NCBI GenBank assembly: GCA_964106915.2
Contig: OZ066924.1
From: Podarcis gaigeae
Lineage: Eukaryota
DNA length: 64,000 nucleotides
Strand: one strand, 5' to 3'
In this document: piece by piece, positions 2,141 to 61,479 of the stretch
Numbering within the stretch: position 1 is the first letter of the stretch
Layout: each line of letters begins with the position of its first letter
Translations under genes and position numbers: made by a program
Notes under the pieces: generated by a model
Told to the model about the DNA's origin: nothing
The model's input: only the letters and a program-made list of their open reading frames with translations
Database searches by the model: none

Positions 2141-4158
2141 GTTTAGTTTAGTGTGATTTATTACGGCCATTGGCCCATATCTAAAACAATACATCAAAAT
2201 TTATCCATAAACAATACAATTTAAACAGTTCCAAGTTAAAACACCCATATAAAACCAATTTTACTTCAATTAAGTAAACACTATACACAATAGGCTCCCT
2301 CTATGTCAACCGCAATTCAAATCCCTCATATTTTGGGGGATATGCGTCTTAGTTCTGGCACTTATTGATGGTTCTTAAGTTTGGCTAAGCTGTCAGAGTC
2401 ATACAGTGATCCATTTCTCCTCTTATGAAATAAGACATTAATCAGGTATCTAGCGACTGCAAGGGATCTACTTGAGTCTTCGTCGTTTAATAAGTATATT
2501 ATTTGGGCTTCCTGAGGTCTGTCAGCAATTCTCGATAAATATGGGGCCAGAAACTTGGACCGTGAAGCCGAATGTAAAGGACAACAGAAGATTATATGAT
2601 ATAATGATTCTATACATCTGTCCGTTGGAGAGTCTGTTACCCAACACATTTGATGGGAAAACATTGAATCTAGCCTTTATAAGGGCATACCTGTGCATCA
2701 CCACAGATAAGGTAGTTAAATAAGATGGAAGTTTCGTTGGTGGTGTTAAGCCAAGGTTTATCGGCGAACTGGTGCCACCACCTGTCGCAATTTTAAATTG
2801 TAAATCCATCTCCTCTAATTTGTGAGTTATAATTCTCTTGGCAGAAATTAAATCCAATTTTAGTAGTTCAGATGGAGCTAGTCCTAAGGACACAAGTTTC
2901 CCATGTATTATTTTTGCCCAAGGGCTAGGGAAGTCGTCTCTCCAGAGACACTGTATCAAGTGGAGATTTGGAAGTTTATGCCATAATGCCAACCAGTAAC
3001 AGAGGATGCATTTCCATAATGTGGTTTCTAGAGATGTAACATTTAGTTCGAACCGTATAGCAGTATTGCCTACACACCTGGGTAATTTTAGCAACCTTCT
3101 TAGCAGCTGGTTTTGGATTACCTCCAATTGGGTTAGATTAACAAAGGACCCCCATGTTGGGATTGCATATGCTATTGTTGCAATCACCTTTGTCTTGAAA
3201 ACTTTTAACACTGATGGAATATGGAAAGCCCCATCTGAAAAGAAAAAACGCAGTAGCGCAAAGGAAAGGGCTTTAGCTCTATTTATTACATATGCAAGAT
3301 GGACCTTCCAGCCCATGTTGTAGAAGGACTCCCAAGTATTGAAATTTAAAGACTTGGTCAATGGCTTGGTCCAATTATAGGTTTTTCGACTTTGGACTTG
3401 GCATGATTAATTGTAAGAAAATTTGATTTGCAGTAAGCATCAAAATTTTTTAGTGCCCTCCTAAGGCCAACTCTTGAGAAAGATAGGATCACTGTGTCGT
3501 CTGCGTAGAGTAGAAGGGGGCAACGATATTGGGCAAGACGGGGGGCGTGGATCGTTTCTTGAGAATCTATCAGAGGCGCCCTCATATCACTTATAAATAG
3601 ATTAAAAAGGGTCGGAGCAAGGATACATCCTTGACGGACACCTCTATTGATGGTTACTGAATTTGAGAGGTCACCGGCCGGAGTGATTCTCACCCTAGCG
3701 GCCGATCCGTCATGCAATTTAGTTATTAGCCACAAAAGTCTTTTGTCTATTCCCATCGTGCTAATTTCCCCCAAAGTAATCCTCTGGGGATGCTGTCAAA
3801 AGCGGCCTTTAAATCAATAAAGGCCGCACAAAGTTGGCCTCTATTTGGGGCAGAATATTTCCGGGCAAGGTGGTATAAAACTAAGACATGATCAACCGCT
3901 GACTGATTCGGTCTAAAACCAGCCTGTTCAGGCCCAATCAGGTTGTTCTCTTCGGCCCACTTAGTAAGCTTAGTTAACAAGAACCGTGCATATATTTTCC
4001 CAATTATTGACAATAAACTGATATTCCTGTAATTTCCCGGATCATCTGTCGTGCCCTTTTTATGAATTGGAATAATAATCGCATCCTTCCATATTCTTGG
4101 AACCTTCCCACTGTTGTTTACGGCATCAAAAGTAACGGCCAGGATTTTCGCCCACCAA
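2141..4158 (-). mobile_element. 5'-truncated non-LTR retrotransposon, RTE-X-like LINE, with 12-bp TSD
   Basis: TSD CCCATCTGGTCA at 2129-2140 and 4159-4170. The minus-strand 3' end reads ...GGCCAATGGCCGTAATAAATCACACTAAACTAAAC (polyA signal plus short repeat tail). RT motifs lie in ORFs 3747-4211, 3358-3774 and 2522-3361. Clade assignment is from motif style only. Confidence 0.85.
2362..4158 (-). pseudogene. Frameshifted reverse transcriptase and C-terminal domain of the RTE-X-like LINE
   Basis: Motifs PIHKKG..PGNYRNISLLS, EQAGFR, FIDLKAAFDS, GVRQGCILAPTLFNLF and YADD; FQYLG in a shifted frame; C-terminal ESLYHIIFCCPLH zinc-knuckle remnant. Split over four ORFs by frameshifts or deletions. Confidence 0.9.
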
Positions 4159-4842
4159 CCCATCTGGTCAATCTCTCTGCTTAGGAGCCAAGTTGAACAT
4201 AGGTTGAACAATCCAGTTGGTAGGGTTGGAGAATGCCCTGAACCATTTGGATCAGCTCCACTAAAGGCGCTCTGTGTAACCAGTGAGGAATTTCTTTGCT
4301 GCCACCACCACCACGCAGAGTAGGGCTTGATAATGAAGTTCTAACTGCGTTTTCTGACAGTCATATTCACAGAAAGGGTTTTGCCGCTTACATGGAAGGT
4401 ATATACTGGAAGATTCTGATGTAAGCAACAAGTTCATAGTGACAGCTGCCAGTGAGCACTCTTACAGCCGGCACACAATTTTATAGCTTTATAAATCCCA
4501 CTGATGTCAGCTGAGCTCACATTGGTTCTCTAAGAAAGAGGCTGCTGTTTAGATTTGCTACTTTCTTTCGCACTGGCGGAGAAGGTGGCGGCAGTGGCAG
4601 AAAGAGCTATGAAGCTCCCCGTAATCTTTTTCATTTGGCAAGTCTGGTTTTGGATACCAGAAAAACCAATCTCCCTCACCTGTCCCTCATGTGAAAATGT
4701 TTGGTAATTAGGATTGATCTATACCTGACAGTGGTTAACTTTTACTTCTTAGGAATATTTACTATTACTTATTTCTAAGTAATTGGAACTAAAGGCTGTA
4801 CACTTCCTCTCATATGCGTCTTGTTCGTATCCAAAGATAAGC

Positions 4843-9079: not shown

Positions 9080-11521
9080 TGTACTTCTCAGCCATAGAAC
9101 ATTTCATCGTGAAGGAAAACCCACTCTTCGTTATATTGCTTCCTCTGAAATTCTATTGAGGACATTGCTTCTCTTATCTAATGTGTATTAAACAATAATT
9201 GGAATGGTATCCTTTCCTCTTCCTCTTATTGCACGTATTTACAGATAGTTGAAGAAACATTAGGATGCTTATTTTGCTGTTGCAGTATATCTTTCCCACT
9301 CTGCACTTAAAAATAGTTATTCATAAGTGTAAACAGATAAAGGTATCTTCAACCCTGGAGACGGTTATGATGATAAAAGTCAGTTTTTAGTTTATGTAAT
9401 CAGCCATGACAGTTGGATGGAGAGTGAAGGCTCATTTTGTGAACTGCTATCACTGCAATCTAAGAGGGTGGTTTTTTTGGTTAAAGTCTTTGTTCATGGC
9501 AGAAGAAGAAAATCCATAGCAATAAATCACTGAATACCAGGTGCTCTGTTGGTAGGGGAAATGATTTTCTCCACTTGATCAAAGAGATCAGCTTTATATT
9601 GCGGGAAAGTACAAACAAGGGCGTAAGTTGCATTAGAGCTACTACTGGACCCGGTTCAAGGTATTAGTGCTACGTTCACACGCTATTTAGGGTTTGTCCT
9701 TAAGCCTGCATCTGCCAAGATCAACCATCTCTGACCCTTTGGTTGGCAGGGGAGGCTTTTATTGGTGGTGTCACTGCTGGGTGTTGTCCGGCAAGTGCTG
9801 ACCCATGACTAGGCTGCCTTGGTACTGTTCCATATATATACTGCTGTGCTTGTGAGGTGCACTGAGAAACCAGAGGGTGGTATCAATGTGCAAGTGTAAA
9901 GTGGGATTGAGTTGAGTGGAGGGGAGTAGAATGTTGTATCCTGGAAGACAACATGGTGGGTTGGCTGGAGCACTGAACAAAACCATTCCACATGGCAAGA
10001 TTTTTTTCAGGTATCACTTAACAGAAATAACAAAGGAACGCCGCCCCCCCCTGACATGGATTTTGTAAAAAGTGTTATTGGATTCCTAACTGGGTTACCC
10101 CCAGATATTTAGTGTACCTCTAAATTAATTTGATGAATAAAGCTGCAGGTTTTGATTGTTAAAAAAGTGATCACTTGACAAAAAAGCACACTGTATCAAT
10201 TAAAGGGAAGTCTGGTACTGTGATGTTCTAGTGTTCATTTCCTTAAACAATTTTCTAAACTGGTTATCTGATTGCCATAACCCTATCAGTTATTAGGTTT
10301 TAGAAGAGCACATTTATTGTGTAGGGATTTAGAGTACGCTTATCTTTCGTTTTATAAAGCTGGGAATGAAAAATTATCTTTATCTGGAAAGGTTGTTCCA
10401 AAGGGTGGGGGTGTATTAAAAGAAGGTAAAATTGACAGTTGTTCTGTTCTTACAGCCAGCTAAATATAGCTAATTTTTGGCTTTCATTCAAGTTACTTAA
10501 GGTTGAGTAACTTGTTTGATTAATATTTCAAGATGGTCCTATAATGGCTGGGTCAGTGTGCATTTAGTGGGTGATTTTTATTATGAGTATTAAGGGACAA
10601 ATGTCTCCATGCATTAGAAGTCACAAAATGCGCAATCAACTGTAGAGGTCTTCTGCAAAATTCATATTTGAACATTCTTGCATCTTACGCAGTTGCAATT
10701 AATTTCACTGAAGATCCCAATAGAAGGGAGAAATTGCTCTCACTGCGTGTAGGAACTTGGCATGCAGAATTCCCTGTAGATGTCTGGGATTCAGTAATTT
10801 TGCTTCCCCTTCTATTGCCATGGTGAAACAGGAGTCAAGCTTTGGAGAACAAGATAAATCTAATGCCTCCTCTGAGCCTGGAGCTGAAGAGGAGACGGAA
10901 CAAAACTTTCTGCCCCCACAGTCCAACAGGTTGGCTGAAATGTGGGATTTGTGTTTTGTGGTTTTTTTTTTTTTTTTGTAGAGCCATGACAAACCTCTGA
11001 CCTCCAACTGGAAGCCAGAAAAGGAAGGTAGAGATTTGCGCACCTGTCAGATGCACAATGTCAATTGAGTGTCAATTGGCTTGCTTTGCGTTTGCATCCA
11101 GTGGACATTGGGTCGAAGGAAGAAGCAGAATTATGTAGCTTTGCCTGTGCTCACAACAGACACTCAGGGTGCATGTTACTCACAAAGGCAGTTCTGAGCT
11201 AGATTGGGAAGGTGAAACTGCCTGGGTTCACTCCATACCCAGTGGTTACTCCAGATTGTAAGTGCCGACTGTGTGCAAAGTCAGAGCAGGCTCTGGCCTT
11301 CTCTAGCTGCTGTTGGGGGGCAGGGACTTGTTTTCTGCCCTCTTTCCTCCAAGATTTAGTTTTCATTCTGGAGAAAAGAGTAGGAAATTTTCTCCTTAAC
11401 TTGTGCTTCTTTTCAGACACTAACTACAAGGTCAGGGACAAGACCATGTAACTTGGTGATGAGAATTTGTTTGCTTGGCTCTGCAGCTGTTTTTGCATAG
11501 TGATGTGGTAAGGATAAATGT

Positions 11522-22420: not shown

Positions 22421-22573
22421 TATTAGAATAACATATTAATACACACACACACAAACTGCACTTACAACAAGGATAGTTCCAGTTACAGATAGGTAGCCGT
22501 GTTGGTCTGCCATAGTCAAAACAAAAAAAATTCCTTCCAGTAGCACCTTAAAGACCAACTAAGTCAGTTCTTG

Positions 22574-22611
22574 GTATGAGCTTTCGTGTGCATGCACACT
22601 TCTTCAGATAC
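22574..22611 (-). ncRNA. Minimal type I hammerhead ribozyme motif (inverted pseudo-LTR copy)
   Basis: Exact reverse complement of 23450-23487. Confidence 0.8.
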
Positions 22612-22672
22612 ACTGAAACAGAAGTTTCCAGACCCTTCTATATAGTGAGAAGGTGGGGAGGGGTATTACTCA

Positions 22673-23269
22673 GTACAATGCATCATCAGAGATCTACAAC
22701 CTCTCCTGGACAATGACAGTTCTCTTTCTCAAGCTCTGGGAGGAAGACCTTTCATTGCCTACAGACAGCCACCCAGTCTTAAACAACTCCTAACCCACAA
22801 TAATACTACAACCAGACCTAACACGGACACTGGCACCAGAGCCTGCAGTAAACCCAGATGCCAACTTTGCTGCCACATACACCCGGACAACACCATTACT
22901 GGCCCCAACAACATCACACATACCATCTCGGGACTATTTAATTGCTCATCGTCTAACATTGTGTATGCCATCAAATGCCAACAGTGTCCTTCAGCTCTCT
23001 ATATTGGACAAACAGGCCAGACCTTACGCCAAAGAATAAACGGACATAAATCGGACATCAGGAATCACAAGACAGAGAAACCAGTAGGAGAACACTTCAA
23101 TCTCCCAGGACATTCTATACAAGATCTCAAAGTAGCTGCTTTACTACAAAGGAATTTCAGAAATAGACTGGAAAGAGAAGCTGCTGAATTACAACTTATC
23201 ACCAAACTTAAAACCATGGAGAAACCTGGCCTGAACAAAGACCTTGGATTCTTATCTCATTATACATGA
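22673..23269 (+). CDS. Penelope ORF 3' part: Cys-rich linker plus GIY-YIG endonuclease (no start codon, 5'-truncated)
   Basis: Uninterrupted frame VQCIIRDLQP...AYRQPPSLKQLL...CSKPRCQLCCH...FNCSSSNIVYAIKCQQCPSALYIGQTGQTLRQRINGH...PVGEHF...LEREAAELQLITKLKT..PGLNKD. Confidence 0.85.
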   Translation, partial: VQCIIRDLQPLLDNDSSLSQALGGRPFIAYRQPPSLKQLLTHNNTTTRPNTDTGTRACSKPRCQLCCHIHPDNTITGPNNITHTISGLFNCSSSNIVYAIKCQQCPSALYIGQTGQTLRQRINGHKSDIRNHKTEKPVGEHFNLPGHSIQDLKVAALLQRNFRNRLEREAAELQLITKLKTMEKPGLNKDLGFLSHYT

Positions 23270-23449
23270 CAAAGCCATTTTTCACCTTTTCACCCCTTGC
23301 TTCTTCCTGTAAGACCTATTGCAGTCGTTAAGAGTCGTCAACAGGCTCATCACAGCTATCTGCCAATCACCCATTCCCACCAGCCTCCTGAGTAATACCC
23401 CTCCCCACCTTCTCACTATATAGAAGGGTCTGGAAACTTCTGTTTCAGT

Positions 23450-23487
23450 GTATCTGAAGAAGTGTGCATGCACACGAAAGCTCATAC
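23450..23487 (+). ncRNA. Minimal type I hammerhead ribozyme motif in the Penelope pseudo-LTR
   Basis: GUAU-CUGAAGA-A-GUGUG(CAUG)CACAC-GAAA-GC-UC-AUAC: stem I GUAU/AUAC, stem II, intact core, and palindromic AGCU in place of stem III. Predicted cleavage after C23483. Confidence 0.8.
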
Positions 23488-24948
23488 CAAGAACTGACTT
23501 AGTTGGTCTTTAAGGTGCTACTGGAAGGAATTTTCTTTGTTTTGAACAAGGATAGTGTAAGTGTTTAGACATACTCGTTTCACATACAAAAGATCTTTGT
23601 GCTCCACATTAATCTTTGGGATTAGAGCTACTGCTTTATTCAAAGGTGCATACTGAAATTAAGTCTTCTTGATTAACTGGGCAATGCTATACATTGACTC
23701 ATGTACACATGTCTACTTAGAAGTAAGTCTCACTGACTGGTATGAGGCTTGCACCACAAGGACCTGAATTCTAGTCTGCCTGAAACACATTTTCCTGAAT
23801 GCAATGATTTGGTAACTGAGTTGCACTGAGCCATGCCCATTATTTTCTTTGTGCTGCAAAGCTGAAGAGTGCCGAACAGCTGCTTGTGGCTGTCAATGCA
23901 GTAAAGAAACTGTTTAGCAGTTAAACAGCAGGTTAGCACTTTAGCAGGAAAAGTGGTGGCTGGCTACTCATCCAACACTTGGCGTATCTGACAGATCCAA
24001 GTGTGTCTTAAGCCTAACTAATAGATGATGCTTGACATAGCAGCTCTATAAATAATTATTGGACTGTGGAAGACACACCCTTTATCCGAATACATTGCAA
24101 GAGGTAGTAATTTATTATGAATATATTGTCTGGATAGATTAGCAGTGCGTAAATTTGTAATAGTACTATAATACTTTAAAAATATTTATTTTTCTTTTTT
24201 TAAAAAAAATAAGACTTTAAAAACAGCTCTGCATTTTTCTCAGCTGGTGATCAGTTAAAATAGCCATTACACTTGGCTGGAAATATGGAGAACAGATTAA
24301 GCTGTTACTACAATATATAGGTTTTCCTTTTGTAACAAGTTGCTAAACACAAGTTATGACCAGTTTCCATAAAAAATTCAGTGCTTCGTCCAAAAAAGGA
24401 TAAAAAGTATATAAAATGCAAAAAACACCTTTTTTTGAAACTCAACTTGATCAAAAACATCACATTAAGATTGCAAGATTAATTTTATTTGCAGAAAAAC
24501 ACATTATTGCTACTTACCATTTTCACCTATAGTGAAAGCAGCTGAAAACTAATGGCAGACGATTCTCTGCTTCAGTGGCTGTACTGTTTTTTTCATATGA
24601 CATCCAACTGGATGATAAGAAAGAGAATAGCTGTCCTAAGGCTTTATCAAGGAAATGTAATGGCGGTGCCTGTTTGACAAGCAAATCAGTCTTGAAATTT
24701 CCAGACAGCTATGAACCAGTGTCAACTAATAAGTCAATGGTATGCTAAGCTTTATAATTAATATATTTTATTTTAACTAACTTGAGGCAATGTAGGAGAC
24801 CTCTGTTTATATTGTCATTTCTGCCGCTTAGATTTGTAATGCTTTTAAAAACGTTGTCCTTATTTCTGAATCATTTAGTTCCTTACCAATAACAAATCTG
24901 CCAGTATAACCATTGCTTCCTTTTTCAAATATGCCTGTGCTGTAAGAT

Positions 24949-28263: not shown

Positions 28264-28674
28264 CTGGGAGTAAGGTCCACTGAACTCAGTGCGGCTTTCT
28301 CCTAAGTAGACACTTAGTTATTTACTACATGCAAGTTAGCACCATACAACCTTGTTCGGCTAGACGCTTGGGTGGATTGCACCCTGCACTTTGCAGAGTC
28401 AGGCCCAGGCTGCCACTGGGCCCAGATCTGGTGGCAGCAACAAGCAGCTCCGGCTCACCCAGCTCTACCCATTGCCACCCCACCACCTCACTCAGCTAAC
28501 ATGGGGATTTGGGATTGCGGGCCCTACTGGTCAAAATGGGAGCCTCAGTGATTGCCCTCTCCAACCGGAAACAATCCAGGACTGCTCCAAGAAAACACAC
28601 GTGGCAAAAAGGAGTTCTAGGTTCTGGTGTGCTGCTCACTTACCCACTTGTGATTGGCCAAGTGGATAGCCAGT

Positions 28675-29377
28675 TGAAAAAACACGTAAACGTAACAATT
28701 GCAAAGTTATTTACTAGAAACTACTTCTCAAAAATTAGATACAGTTTCTCATAGTGTCAAAATCAACATTGTGACATAATATATTAAAATGTAGCTTATA
28801 CAGCAGACCACCAAGTTCAGTATGTACAAAATACAAATCCTATTTTGTCAGTGCTGTAATACATTCATTTCTAATTTCTTCATCTTCTCTTGTATTTTTC
28901 TGTCTGATGTATTCCTTAGAAGAGTGACATGAAATAATCTTCTAAATGTCTAATGAAGATGATAAAGTTGGTAGACAAAAGAAACTGGTACTGGTAGATG
29001 CTGGCACAGGGAGACAAGACAAGGATTCCTGGATATTCCCCTGTTTCACCCAAAGGGGCTTCGTCAGCTGTGCATAGTTCTAAATCATATAAACATAGAC
29101 GCTCTGTAATATAATAGCTACACAAATTCCAAAGAAACATACAAGGATATAATAAATGCACATACTGGTACTGTATATAACAGCTACATGGAACTTATTC
29201 ATAATAGGTTCTCAGTCGAGGTAAACCATACAACAAGCCATAAGTGCTGTGGCACACGTGGCAAATGATTGTATAGTAAAGTTAAAGCCTTCACTATTAA
29301 AGAATTCTTTTGCTTGTAATGCAAACCTACACGTGGTGCAGTGTCCACACTTGAAAAGACCTTGTGGTTTTGACTTT
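28675..29377 (-). mobile_element. Internally deleted Neptune-type Penelope-like element (second family), nested in the hAT
   Basis: 16-bp TSD CAAGTGGATAGCCAGT at 28659-28674 and 29378-29393. Minus frame 29376-29242 reads KSKPQGLFKCGHCTTCRFALQAKEFFNSEGFNFTIQSFATCATAL (Neptune-type Cys linker, not in the ORF track). A hammerhead motif lies downstream. Confidence 0.8.
29014..29071 (-). ncRNA. Type I hammerhead ribozyme motif with full stem III
   Basis: ACAG-CUGACGA-A-GCCC(CUUU)GGGU-GAAA-CAGGG...CCUUG-UC-UUGU: core present, stem III ACAGGG/CCUUGU, GUC triplet, stem I ACAG/UUGU. Confidence 0.7.
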
Positions 29378-30111
29378 CAAGTGGATAGCCAGTCAAATCA
29401 GGATTATTAAAAAAAAAAAAATTCCCCCCCCTTCACTTCTCACATCCCTCTGTGGCCTCCTAGCCTCATGCTATGGCCTCCCCATTTACGTAATTTTCAC
29501 CTATTTTCCCCTTGGAATATCCTGGGGGCCCCAGTTGGGAAACACTGGACTAGATGATCCTCATGGTCCCTTCCAACTCTATAATTCCATGATTCTATGA
29601 ACACTCTCCCCTCCAGTGGTTTCCAGCAACTGGTACCCAAGATTTCTCCAATAGCATAGGGTACTGCTCAGTATGTTTTGCTATTTAAAAAAGTGAAGTT
29701 CACTTGACATAAGTAGGGCATATTTTTCTGTTTTTCTCCATATTGTAGGTCCCTGCTGTTTCATAATCCAGGAATGCTTTTTTCTCTCTCCCCCCCCCCC
29801 CGACTTCAAAATTTCCAGGAACTTTACACATCTGTTTTAATTGGGTATCAAGAACAAGTTAATTCTGGACTGTATAGAATATACACTCCTGGAAGTTTCT
29901 GAACAACTGTATGAAAGGTTGACTGTTTTTGAAGCAGGAGACTTGACTAAGTCTCATTTGAATGCTGTGACTTGGAATGCATTCTGTTTTTTCTTTGGAA
30001 GGGGGAAATTGTATAATCCATTGGGAAATCTGTTACTTGCTTACTGAATCAGTTTTGTGATAAACATATTTCTTTAGTAAGAAATCCACATATGTCTTGA
30101 TTTTAAGACAG

Positions 30112-30361: not shown

Positions 30362-30725
30362 AAGGTAAAGGTAAAGGTACCCCTGCCCGTACGGGCCAGT
30401 CTTGACAGACTCTGGGGTTGTGCGCCCATCTCACTCAAGAGGCCAGGGGCCAGCGCTGTCCGGAGACACTTCCGGGTCACGTGGCCAGCGTGACAAAGCT
30501 GCATCTGGCGAGCCAGAGCTGCACACGGAAACGCCGTTTACCTTTCCGCTGGTAAGCGGTCCCTATTTATCTACTTGCACCCGGAGGTGCTTTCGAACTG
30601 CTAGGTTGGCAGGCGCTGGGACCGAGCAGCGGGAGCGCACCCCGCCACAGGGATTCGAACCGCCGACCTTTCGATCGGCAAGTCCTAGGCGCTGAGGCTT
30701 TAACCCACAGCGCCACCTGCGTCCC
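30362..30725 (-). mobile_element. Sauria SINE (Squam1), full length, young
   Basis: (ACCTTT)n tail; intact B-box GGTTCGAATCCC; CpG-rich; 14-bp TSD CCAGCTCTGTGATA at 30348-30361 and 30726-30739. Confidence 0.95.
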
Positions 30726-59707: not shown

Positions 59708-60467
59708 TGTCAGGACTGCCGCTAGGTCCCAGCTCACAGAGGACCAACGCCCAGTGGATATTATATACAAAAGTCTTTATTGAAGTTTAGTTTCCATTTC
59801 CAAGCTCTGGGCGCGCAGGCCCACGTCTTAACGCTAGACCGGCTAAGTCCCCTCTGACTCACTGCTCCACCCACACCAGTTTAAGATTCTAGCCCGGCTC
59901 CACCTCTTGCGCTGCTCTTTCCTGCGTTGGGTCCTTCTGCCCTCTGGGGTTCCCTCCTTCCTGGACTCCTCTGACGCGGAGCCTCCTGAGTCTTGCCCCT
60001 CCCTCCGGCGGGCTTTAGGACCTGGCTCCCTTCCCGGGCTCCCCGCTGTGCCGCGCTCCTGTACATTTGAACTTGGCGCGCGCGCCCAGCCGGTGACTTT
60101 CCTTCTGACCGTTTCCCCGCTTCCTGATGTGGGTGTTGCCAAACCTGACTCCTCTCCTCCCTCTGGTGGTGAGGACACTGGTCCCGACTCCTGGGACTCC
60201 CCCTCCCCACTGCGCTCTGGTGGAGACGCTGGCCCTGATCTCCAGCTGCTGTTCAGAGACTCCCCGCTGGCCCCTCCCTCTTGAGGTTTCTCCCTTGGAA
60301 TCTCCCTTGCTCTGGCCACCGGCGCTCCCTTCTGTGAGTCCTCCGATTCGCTAGAGAGGCTTGTGGAATAACTCTGGCCACTGTCACTGCCTGCGCCCCC
60401 CTCGTACTCCTCCTCCTCACTCTCCATTTGCTCCCCCTCCTGTGTCTCTCCTTCTGAACCCCTGACA
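59708..60467 (-). mobile_element. 760-bp solo LTR, GC/CpG-rich (young)
   Basis: TGTCAGG...CCTGACA inverted termini; 5-bp TSD ATAAT at 59703-59707 and 60468-60472; minus-strand TATA-like CTTAAA at 59885-59880 and AATAAA at 59781-59776. Confidence 0.92.
59843..60427 (-). CDS. Putative LTR (U3)-encoded 194-aa protein: acidic N-terminus, Ser/Pro/Gly-rich middle, Arg-rich C-terminus
   Basis: ATG at 60427 (MESEEEEY...); the frame is open from the LTR's 5' edge to the stop at 59843; contains RRTQRRKEQRKRWSRAR. Coding status is unproven. Confidence 0.4.
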   Translation of the reverse strand: MESEEEEYEGGAGSDSGQSYSTSLSSESEDSQKGAPVARAREIPREKPQEGGASGESLNSSWRSGPASPPERSGEGESQESGPVSSPPEGGEESGLATPTSGSGETVRRKVTGWARAPSSNVQERGTAGSPGREPGPKARRREGQDSGGSASEESRKEGTPEGRRTQRRKEQRKRWSRARILNWCGWSSESEGT

Positions 60468-61479
60468 ATAATAATTATTATTATTCCACTGAATATTAAA
60501 AACAATACAGCATCAGACATTAAAAACTTCCCGAAACAAGGCCGCCTTCAGTTGTCTTTTAAAAGTAAAATAGTTGTTTATTGCCCTGACATCTGCTGGG
60601 AGGGCGTTCCACAGGGCAGGTGCCACTACCGAGAAGGCCCTCTGCCTGGTTCCCTGTAACCTCACTTCTCGCAGTGAGGAAACTGCCAGAAGGCCCTCAG
60701 CGCTGGACCTCAGTGTCCGGGCTGGATGATGGAGGTGGAGACGCTCCTTCAGGTATACAGGACCAAGGCCATTTAGGGCTTTAAAGGTCAGCACCAACAC
60801 TTTGAATTGGGCTCGGAAACGTACTGGAAGCCAATGAAGATCTGGTGTTATATGGTCTTGGCAGCCTCTCCCAGTCACCAGTCTAGCTGCCGCATTCTGG
60901 ATTAATTGCAGTTTCCGAGTCACCTTCAAAGGTAGCCCCACGTAGAGCGCATTGCAGTAGTCCAAGAGGGAGATTTTGTGTTAATATCTGCAAGCACAAC
61001 ACTGCACCATAGTTTCCTCTAAAATTGAAAGGGGGGTGCAAGTCTCTGTGCTTCATGCAGACAATGTGGGGGGAAGCTTCAGGTTACTTTTGATTGGGAT
61101 TGGAACTGTTATGGTGGCTGCTCTGGCATGCAATAGTAGAAAAATTGAAATTGATTTGAGTGAAACAGTAGATCAAAAAATATGGCAAAAATTGATCACT
61201 TTAAGCCAAAGGACATTACGGTCCATAAAATAAACAGCACCCTGCTTGAATGTATGCATGTAGAAATACAAAAAATACATGTAGCAGTCACTTTTAGCAC
61301 CTTGGTTTTAAAAAGCGTGAGCGTGGTCATCAGGAAATAACAGTACAGGCATTTTAAATCAAAATAATAAATTAAATATCACTTGAGTCATCCAATTATT
61401 TTGTACACTAAGCTTGGATTTTCTTAGCTTCTAGGCAAATTTTGCATCTCCCAAGCACATCATTGCTTGCAATGAAAAT

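Follow-up and report, generated by a model that had tools for sequence, protein, structure and literature searches.

Neptune-clade Penelope-like elements (PLEs), such as Neptune-1_Ac of Anolis carolinensis, DrerioNep1 and Penelope1_XT, carry an RT, a Zn-finger-like CX2-5CxxC linker, a C-terminally placed GIY-YIG endonuclease with a CCHH motif, a hammerhead ribozyme downstream on the sense strand, and tandem or inverted pseudo-LTRs (PMC8557442; statements drawn from this and the other papers cited refer to the parts of them available to us). The published Nematis rows have no linker spacer, and Naiads, in which the endonuclease comes first, are described there as devoid of hammerheads (PMC8557442). 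The target-site duplication (TSD) varies in length among PLEs (Craig preprint), and the majority of PLE insertions are truncated at the 5' side and have a single terminal repeat (bioRxiv 10.64898/2026.07.22.740005).

The hammerheads of metazoan PLEs compiled by Cervera and De la Pena (2014, PMC4209133) are minimal. They have type I topology, a CUGANGA core with one extra nucleotide, G at position 10.1, a short stem I, a GUC site, and a helix III of at most 3 bp in 56 of 56 motifs, a set that under-samples long stems because it was found with a minimal-motif descriptor. The original prediction's premise that typical PLE hammerheads are minimal holds for this minimal-biased set, in which 0/56 motifs exceed 3 bp in helix III, and reviews give the same short-stem rule (PMC6765202, PMC6155905). 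The minimal motifs have no loop 1-loop 2 contact, and they cleave poorly and as dimers (PMC4209133). The hammerhead of the Anolis Poseidon element (PAc) cleaves only upon addition of its protein, and insertion in vitro does not require this hammerhead (PMC11167929). A large helix III is found in the endonuclease-less, telomere-associated PLE clades of fungi and protists, which lie outside animals (e.g. Serpula lacrymans), and for one hammerhead of this architecture, monomer cleavage proceeded at 1.97 per min in 10 mM and 0.16 per min in 1 mM Mg2+ (PMC4209133). Animal non-LTR retrozymes are multi-copy families that lack coding capacity and consist of tandem repeats with a type I hammerhead of short helix III in each unit; their RNA occurs as linear and circular monomers (PMC7229834; bioRxiv 10.64898/2026.07.22.740005).

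The insert described here shares with Neptune-clade PLEs the CX2CxxC linker, its spacing to the Cys before GIY, a downstream sense-strand hammerhead and a TSD of the variable kind found in PLEs (PMC8557442). However, it has no RT sequence, no GIY-YIG core and no tandem or inverted pseudo-LTR; no internal repeat is present, the only candidate being 9 bp near the 5' junction that match in inverted orientation. The absence of the endonuclease makes it a Neptune derivative rather than an intact member of the clade. Its ribozyme has the type I topology, the CUGANGA core with one extra nucleotide, the G at 10.1, the short stem I and the GUC site of the minimal metazoan motifs, but differs from them in a 7-bp stem III closed by a 12-nt non-palindromic loop and in a short stem II of 4 bp (PMC4209133). 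The large helix III and the lack of a recognizable loop 1-loop 2 contact recall the fungal and protist hammerheads, to which we liken it by architecture alone (PMC4209133). Animal retrozymes resemble the insert in their relation to PLE pseudo-LTRs, their type I hammerhead, their low GC content, a TSD longer than 4 bp and a reported length of 51-972 bp (PMC7229834; bioRxiv 10.64898/2026.07.22.740005). In contrast to them, the insert is solitary, has one hammerhead and retains a 43-codon PLE coding remnant. The literature surveyed, with few subscription papers among it, describes neither a long stem III in any vertebrate PLE hammerhead nor this motif; no matching long-stem case occurs in the available parts of PMC3088659, PMC6515669 and the Craig preprint.

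Boundaries and composition of the insert

The 703-bp insert lies on the minus strand (28675..29377) and is bracketed by CAAGTGGATAGCCAGT, identical at 16 of 16 positions in its two copies. Within the window, by which we mean the whole 64-kb stretch of DNA analyzed, this 16-mer is the sole exact two-copy, non-low-complexity direct repeat of at least 16 nt with a spacing of 100-5000 nt. The exact repeat at both ends bears out the 703-bp insertion with a 16-bp TSD that the original prediction had described. Coordinates of the insert and of a second, textbook Neptune-type fragment in the window, which served as a control, are listed in Table 1.

Table 1. Features of the insert, in element order, and of the control element
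Feature	Position	Strand	Basis or remark
TSD copy, element 5' side	29378..29393	.	all 16 bp identical to 28659-28674
Neptune-type RT-EN Cys linker truncated on its 5' side, 43 codons, G-x3-C-x2-C-x2-C ... FATCxT	29248..29376	-	open frame, by-eye collinearity, motif
Inferred deletion junction	29243..29247	-	homology ends just 5' of GIY motif; alignment and spacing
Candidate endonuclease remnant, second frame (YGLLYG...RLRT..E*)	29195..29242	-	relic of YIG, or the PxGLN end of the C terminus
AT-rich spacer, presumed 3' UTR / pseudo-LTR	29074..29194	-	identity inferred from position
Type I hammerhead, register A	29014..29071	-	predicted cut after C29018
Register A stem I	29071-29068/29017-29014	-	4 bp, one G-U
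Register A core	CUGACGA 29067-29061, extra A 29060, GAAA 29047-29044	-	
Register A stem II	29059-29056/29051-29048	-	4 bp, G-U at base
Register A stem III	29044-29038/29025-29019	-	7 bp including A15.1-U16.1 and two G-U, 12-nt loop
Competing strand	29004..29011	-	perfect 6-bp partner of stem I 5' arm 29073-29068 and of stem III 5' arm
AT-rich 3' part, 329 nt, presumed remaining pseudo-LTR / start of next tandem unit	28675..29003	-	
TSD copy, element 3' side	28659..28674	.	exact 16-bp repeat
Control: second Neptune-type PLE fragment, textbook	22466-23556		
Control: CX4CxxC linker and intact GIY-YIG	22649-23269	+	Pfam PF01541
Control: inverted pseudo-LTR arms	22673-22516 and 23388-23545		
Control: minimal hammerheads	23454 and 22607	+ and -	descriptor scan
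Control: tail on left arm; 12-bp TSD	22466 and 23545		

The GC content of the insert is 0.35, compared with 0.50 and 0.40 in the 700-bp flanks. It is lowest in the spacer (0.31 across 29068-29194) and in the 3' part (0.30), which has no recognizable ORF, gave no match in a Pfam scan and shows no similarity to the control element. By eye the 3' part had been likened to the tail of the control and to a Neptune N-terminus, a likeness that comparison did not support and that was dropped. As a whole, the insert shows no DNA similarity to the control element with any of six scoring schemes (between 59 and 195 of 200 shuffles scored at least as high) and no match among plasmids and phages. No second copy is found in the 64-kb window, where the best other match is 15 nt long (E 0.13).

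The 9-bp inverted match pairs the 5' junction (29375-29383) with sequence 18 nt inside the element (29348-29356) and arose in 14/20,000 shuffles; it would be expected if the second target strand had annealed to the element RNA in a twin-priming-like manner. The target site 28659-28674 also resembles the tail/TSD junction of the control (22461-22490), with ACTGG, CTATCC and CTTG common to both. A score at least as good occurs in 11/8507 30-nt windows. This likeness, between two sites and noticed post hoc, may hint at a Neptune target preference common to both elements.

The linker remnant and the missing endonuclease

At the element's 5' end, the minus-strand frame 29376-29215 is open over 54 codons and reads KSKPQGLFKCGHCTTC...QSFATCATALMACCMVYLD. 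Codons 1-43 are collinear, with one gap, with the Neptune rows of the published alignment, with 13/40 residues identical to Neptune-1_Ac and 14/40 to DrerioNep1 as counted by eye on that alignment (Craig et al. 2021 Fig S2, PMC8557442); FATCxT is also present in Neptune-1_Ac. Identity of ~32-35% over 40 residues indicates a separate family. A spacing motif, which was derived post hoc from three published rows together with the insert itself, matches once across the six frames of the window, in the insert, and in 0/200 shuffled windows. The claim of about 45 codons of Neptune-type Cys linker thus stands, as 43 collinear codons and a motif unique in the window.

Searches with the linker peptide gave no candidate among the longer proteins searched, nothing above 0.76 in an Atlas search and no match in PDB or Pfam; its pattern had 574 matches in GTDB genomes, 0 of them confirmed. 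Pairwise alignment with the Neptune protein in the window is not significant (224/500 shuffles were as good). The assignment as a Neptune linker is therefore a putative one, resting on the motif and on the position of the hammerhead where PLEs have one.

Pfam detects no GIY-YIG domain in the nine frames of the insert that were scanned, whereas the control element matched PF01541 at 8e-6. There is also too little room for a C-terminal GIY-YIG with its CCHH motif: the distance from the last linker Cys to C3 of the hammerhead is 189 nt in the insert and 511 nt in the control copy. In Neptune-1_Ac, 97 residues (291 nt by hand count, PMC8557442) separate the linker Cys from GLNE. Both Pfam and this spacing confirm that a recognizable GIY-YIG is absent. 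From the spacing, at least 100 nt would be missing, and probably 270-320 nt. The proposed deletion junction near 29242 is likewise supported, at about 29247-29243, with the endonuclease core lost.

The 48 nt past the junction read YGLLYGLPRLRTYYE* in another frame. A YIG-like motif arises in this stretch in 14/5000 shuffles (a post hoc figure); its reading as the C-terminal PxGLN end of the endonuclease was rejected as not significant (567/2000 shuffles). One clean deletion and several deletions are both possible given this second-frame remnant. On the sense strand the last linker-homologous bases, 29249-29247, finish with CAG, as exons typically do, and the endonuclease could therefore have been lost by splicing instead of deletion.

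A hammerhead motif with a long stem III

The hammerhead core (29067-29044) is on the sense strand of the element, 189 nt past the linker, as in Neptune-clade PLEs. The conserved core positions C3-A9, G12-A15.1, U16.1 and H17 are all present in register A (CUGACGA, GAAA, GUC), and three helices can be drawn as 4/4/7 bp. The original prediction of a CUGACGA/GAAA/GUC hammerhead with a 6-7 bp stem III at 29071-29014 is upheld, at 7 bp and beyond shuffle chance. A second GUC at 29015-29013 was rejected as the cleavage site: it would allow 6 bp of stem III but a stem I of 1 bp. Type III topology was also rejected, as inspection found no upstream partner for stem III. A tertiary contact between loops 1 and 2 is a feature of canonical hammerheads; on inspection loop 2 here is CUUU, with no purine, and no such contact is apparent.

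Shuffling shows that the two outer stems are jointly rare, at thresholds set after seeing the sequence. With the core fixed, a 7-bp stem III and a 4-bp stem I in register at the GUC appeared in 2/20,000 sequences obtained by shuffling the 60 nt downstream. When the 5' arm was fixed as well, stems III and I in register appeared in 25/20,000, and looser limits gave 78 to 192/20,000. A 7-bp stem III with a perfect partner within 10 nt appeared in 23/30,000. A 7-bp stem III alone is far more common, at 336/20,000 shuffles, or 2230/20,000 with the 5' arm fixed (1.7-11%). The two stems are not independent because both 5' arms start with ACAG and the 3' side carries a 5-nt tandem duplication (CTTGT CTTGT). 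Once stem III exists, one 5-nt slippage would therefore yield stem I free.

Two pairings overlooked by the original prediction involve the strand just downstream. The 5' arm of stem I, GCACAG, has a perfect 6-bp partner at 29009-29004, and the 5' arm of stem III can form a perfect 6-bp helix 29044-29039/29011-29006; together they outcompete the active fold. The competing strand may once have been the 3' strand of stem I in the ancestor, since shifted by ~8 nt. Depending on the register, A15.1 is 26 or 34 nt from stem I.

A descriptor scan of the 64-kb window found five cores with a 4-bp stem II, compared with a mean of 0.8 in 60 shuffles. These are the hammerhead of the insert, two minimal ones in the control element, whose helix III is at most 3 bp, and two CUGANGA-stem II-GAAA cores at 10708 and 42383 that have no supporting stems I and III and are probably chance occurrences. 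Rfam gave no hammerhead match in the insert; because it also missed the textbook minimal hammerhead of the control, this negative is uninformative.

Predicted folding

As the 58-nt core alone, the active fold lies 5.0 kcal/mol above the ensemble. In the other six of the seven folding windows, all longer, it costs 13.5-15.3 kcal/mol and stem I has a probability of 0.00, as one of its arms, or else that of stem III, is taken up by pairing with 29011-29004. The pair probabilities of this competing strand are 0.72-0.79 in windows of 81-91 nt and 0.89-0.99 in longer ones. Extending the 3' end from 29014 to 29004 raises the penalty from 5.0 to 12.9 kcal/mol, and a rise within 10 nt of transcription suggests that the interval would be too short for co-transcriptional cleavage.

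Cleavage as a monomer, which the original prediction considered possible, is thus not supported in the native flanks: the 29085-28995 construct proposed with it has a penalty of 14.4 kcal/mol and stem I pair probabilities of 0.00. Nor does the U-to-C revertant of stem II act as a rescue in our calculations, as it lowers the penalty only to 14.0 kcal/mol (about 0.5 recovered), and the stem II G-U is therefore not the limiting lesion. Without 29017-29010, the 8 displaced nucleotides, the fold is well formed, with a penalty of 3.3 instead of 14.4 kcal/mol, or 2.4 when the revertant is added. By-eye counting finds G10.1-U11.1 at the base of stem II in 8/56 published PLE hammerheads (PMC4209133). 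An origin of this G-U from CpG decay, also proposed originally, is no more than plausible from one copy.

The ribozyme of this copy is probably silent, as it is predicted to misfold instead of cutting. Neither the catalytic core nor stabilization by protein is credited in nearest-neighbour energies, and the Anolis Poseidon hammerhead needs its protein; for both reasons predicted misfolding does not amount to proof of inactivity.

Origin of the insert

We favor, with a probability of about one half, the reading that the insert is a single, dead-on-arrival TPRT product, 5'-truncated, internally deleted and since decayed, and that the hammerhead of the Neptune family it came from possessed a true stem III. 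The parent protein would have made a nick at the target and started reverse transcription of the RNA within the pseudo-LTR, which would place the 3' end at 28675. About 270-320 nt of endonuclease sequence would have been skipped through a template jump or a spliced template, or lost by later genomic deletion. Reverse transcription would have halted in the linker, leaving the 5' truncation, and staggered nicks would have produced the 16-bp TSD. In the parent family, stem III of the hammerhead was most likely genuine and self-contained, and the ribozyme would then have needed no dimer partner, unlike the minimal metazoan motifs. The long stem III is present in either register and is rare jointly with stem I in shuffles, which argues for its presumed inheritance. 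Also in favor of this reading are the TSD, the linker collinearity, the spacing deficit, the well-formed fold without the 8 displaced nucleotides, the penalty that grows with transcript length, and the lack of a second copy in the window. Silencing would follow from the perfect partner of stem I, which is out of register by 8 nt and would trap both arms, from the G-U that starts stem II and from a loop 2 without obvious loop-loop contact. The insert behaves as a truncated PLE insertion, and its ribozyme has the build of the fungal large-helix-III type.

The stem could instead be an accident of decay, in which a minimal parent with the 6-bp stem I 29073-29068/29009-29004 had ~30 nt inserted or slipped into helix III. 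All 56 published metazoan motifs (PMC4209133), and the control element as well, have a helix III of at most 3 bp, the extra A after A9 is a signature of the minimal type (PMC4209133), short duplications occur in the region (CTTGT twice, GGAAT twice), and a 7-bp stem III alone is not rare in shuffles. However, at least two insertions and a chance 7-bp helix ending exactly at the GUC would be required, with a joint shuffle frequency of ~0.001, and the adjoining linker, free of indels over 43 codons, and the perfect TSD argue against heavy decay. We regard this account as improbable. Another reading, in line with the original prediction, is a non-autonomous, endonuclease-less Neptune derivative amplified in trans as a family, with the junction near 29245 in all copies. 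The clean TSD around the deleted form suggests that the deletion may predate insertion, non-autonomous PLE derivatives are known (MRC1 in Chlamys, PMC8557442), animal retrozymes derive from pseudo-LTRs (bioRxiv 10.64898/2026.07.22.740005), and the retained 3' part would hold cis signals. Those of PAc are within the initial 172 nt of its ORF, beyond the hammerhead (PMC11167929). Yet the 5' end, mid-codon in the linker, resembles an ordinary truncation, a one-off deletion accounts for everything seen, the insert has one hammerhead and no tandem array, and the window holds no second copy, the latter weak evidence from a small sample. Such a family therefore strikes us as unlikely. The retrozyme-like label in particular fits poorly: the definition demands a hammerhead in at least two consecutive tandem units, and because the insert has a single ribozyme, is not part of a tandem array and is not repeated within the 64 kb, we do not file it as a retrozyme; one ribozyme could not be expected to excise a monomer RNA.

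We give similarly little credence to the proposal that register A, with its cut after C29018 and 4-bp stem I, is the true family ribozyme and that the downstream strand is a conserved off-switch for regulated monomer cleavage, removed by the element's protein or by flanking RNA. Register A is complete and rare in shuffles, a stem I of 4-5 bp is typical for PLE hammerheads (PMC4209133), the PAc hammerhead is assisted by protein (PMC11167929), and a single 8-nt strand can block both arms at once. On the other hand, this dual pairing needs no design, because ACAG is common to both arms, and the blocker costs ~9 kcal/mol relative to the truncated RNA. The boldest version is the least likely of all: in a vertebrate Neptune lineage, the minimal hammerhead that depends on dimers would have given way to one that has a full stem III and is competent as a monomer, with the downstream blocking strand as its gate, and an endonuclease-less 0.7-kb derivative would move in trans as solitary, TSD-flanked copies. 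If true, this would add a third way for non-autonomous PLE derivatives to arise, different from that of tandem retrozymes.

With its long stem III the insert is a modest variant of the well-known PLE hammerhead arrangement. A family of animal PLEs in which stem III is self-contained would offer a simple monomer substrate for testing whether cleavage sets the ends of the element, and would mean that descriptor and Rfam searches are missing a class of vertebrate hammerheads. The only pointer to such a family is this single, probably misfolded fragment.

Other features of the window

The window looks like repeat-rich vertebrate DNA. None of the 149 open frames of at least 68 codons has a host-gene domain in Pfam; the only matches among them are two RT fragments and the GIY-YIG of the control element. 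LINE RT fragments occupy 2525-4340 on the minus strand in three frames, two of which match RVT_1. A GC-rich, low-complexity open frame of 234 codons (59843-60547) adjoins an RT fragment at 60513-60980, which we take to be a CR1/L2-like C-terminal fragment; neither has a Pfam match. The segment near 30375-30695 resembles a Sauria SINE, which would suggest a squamate source.
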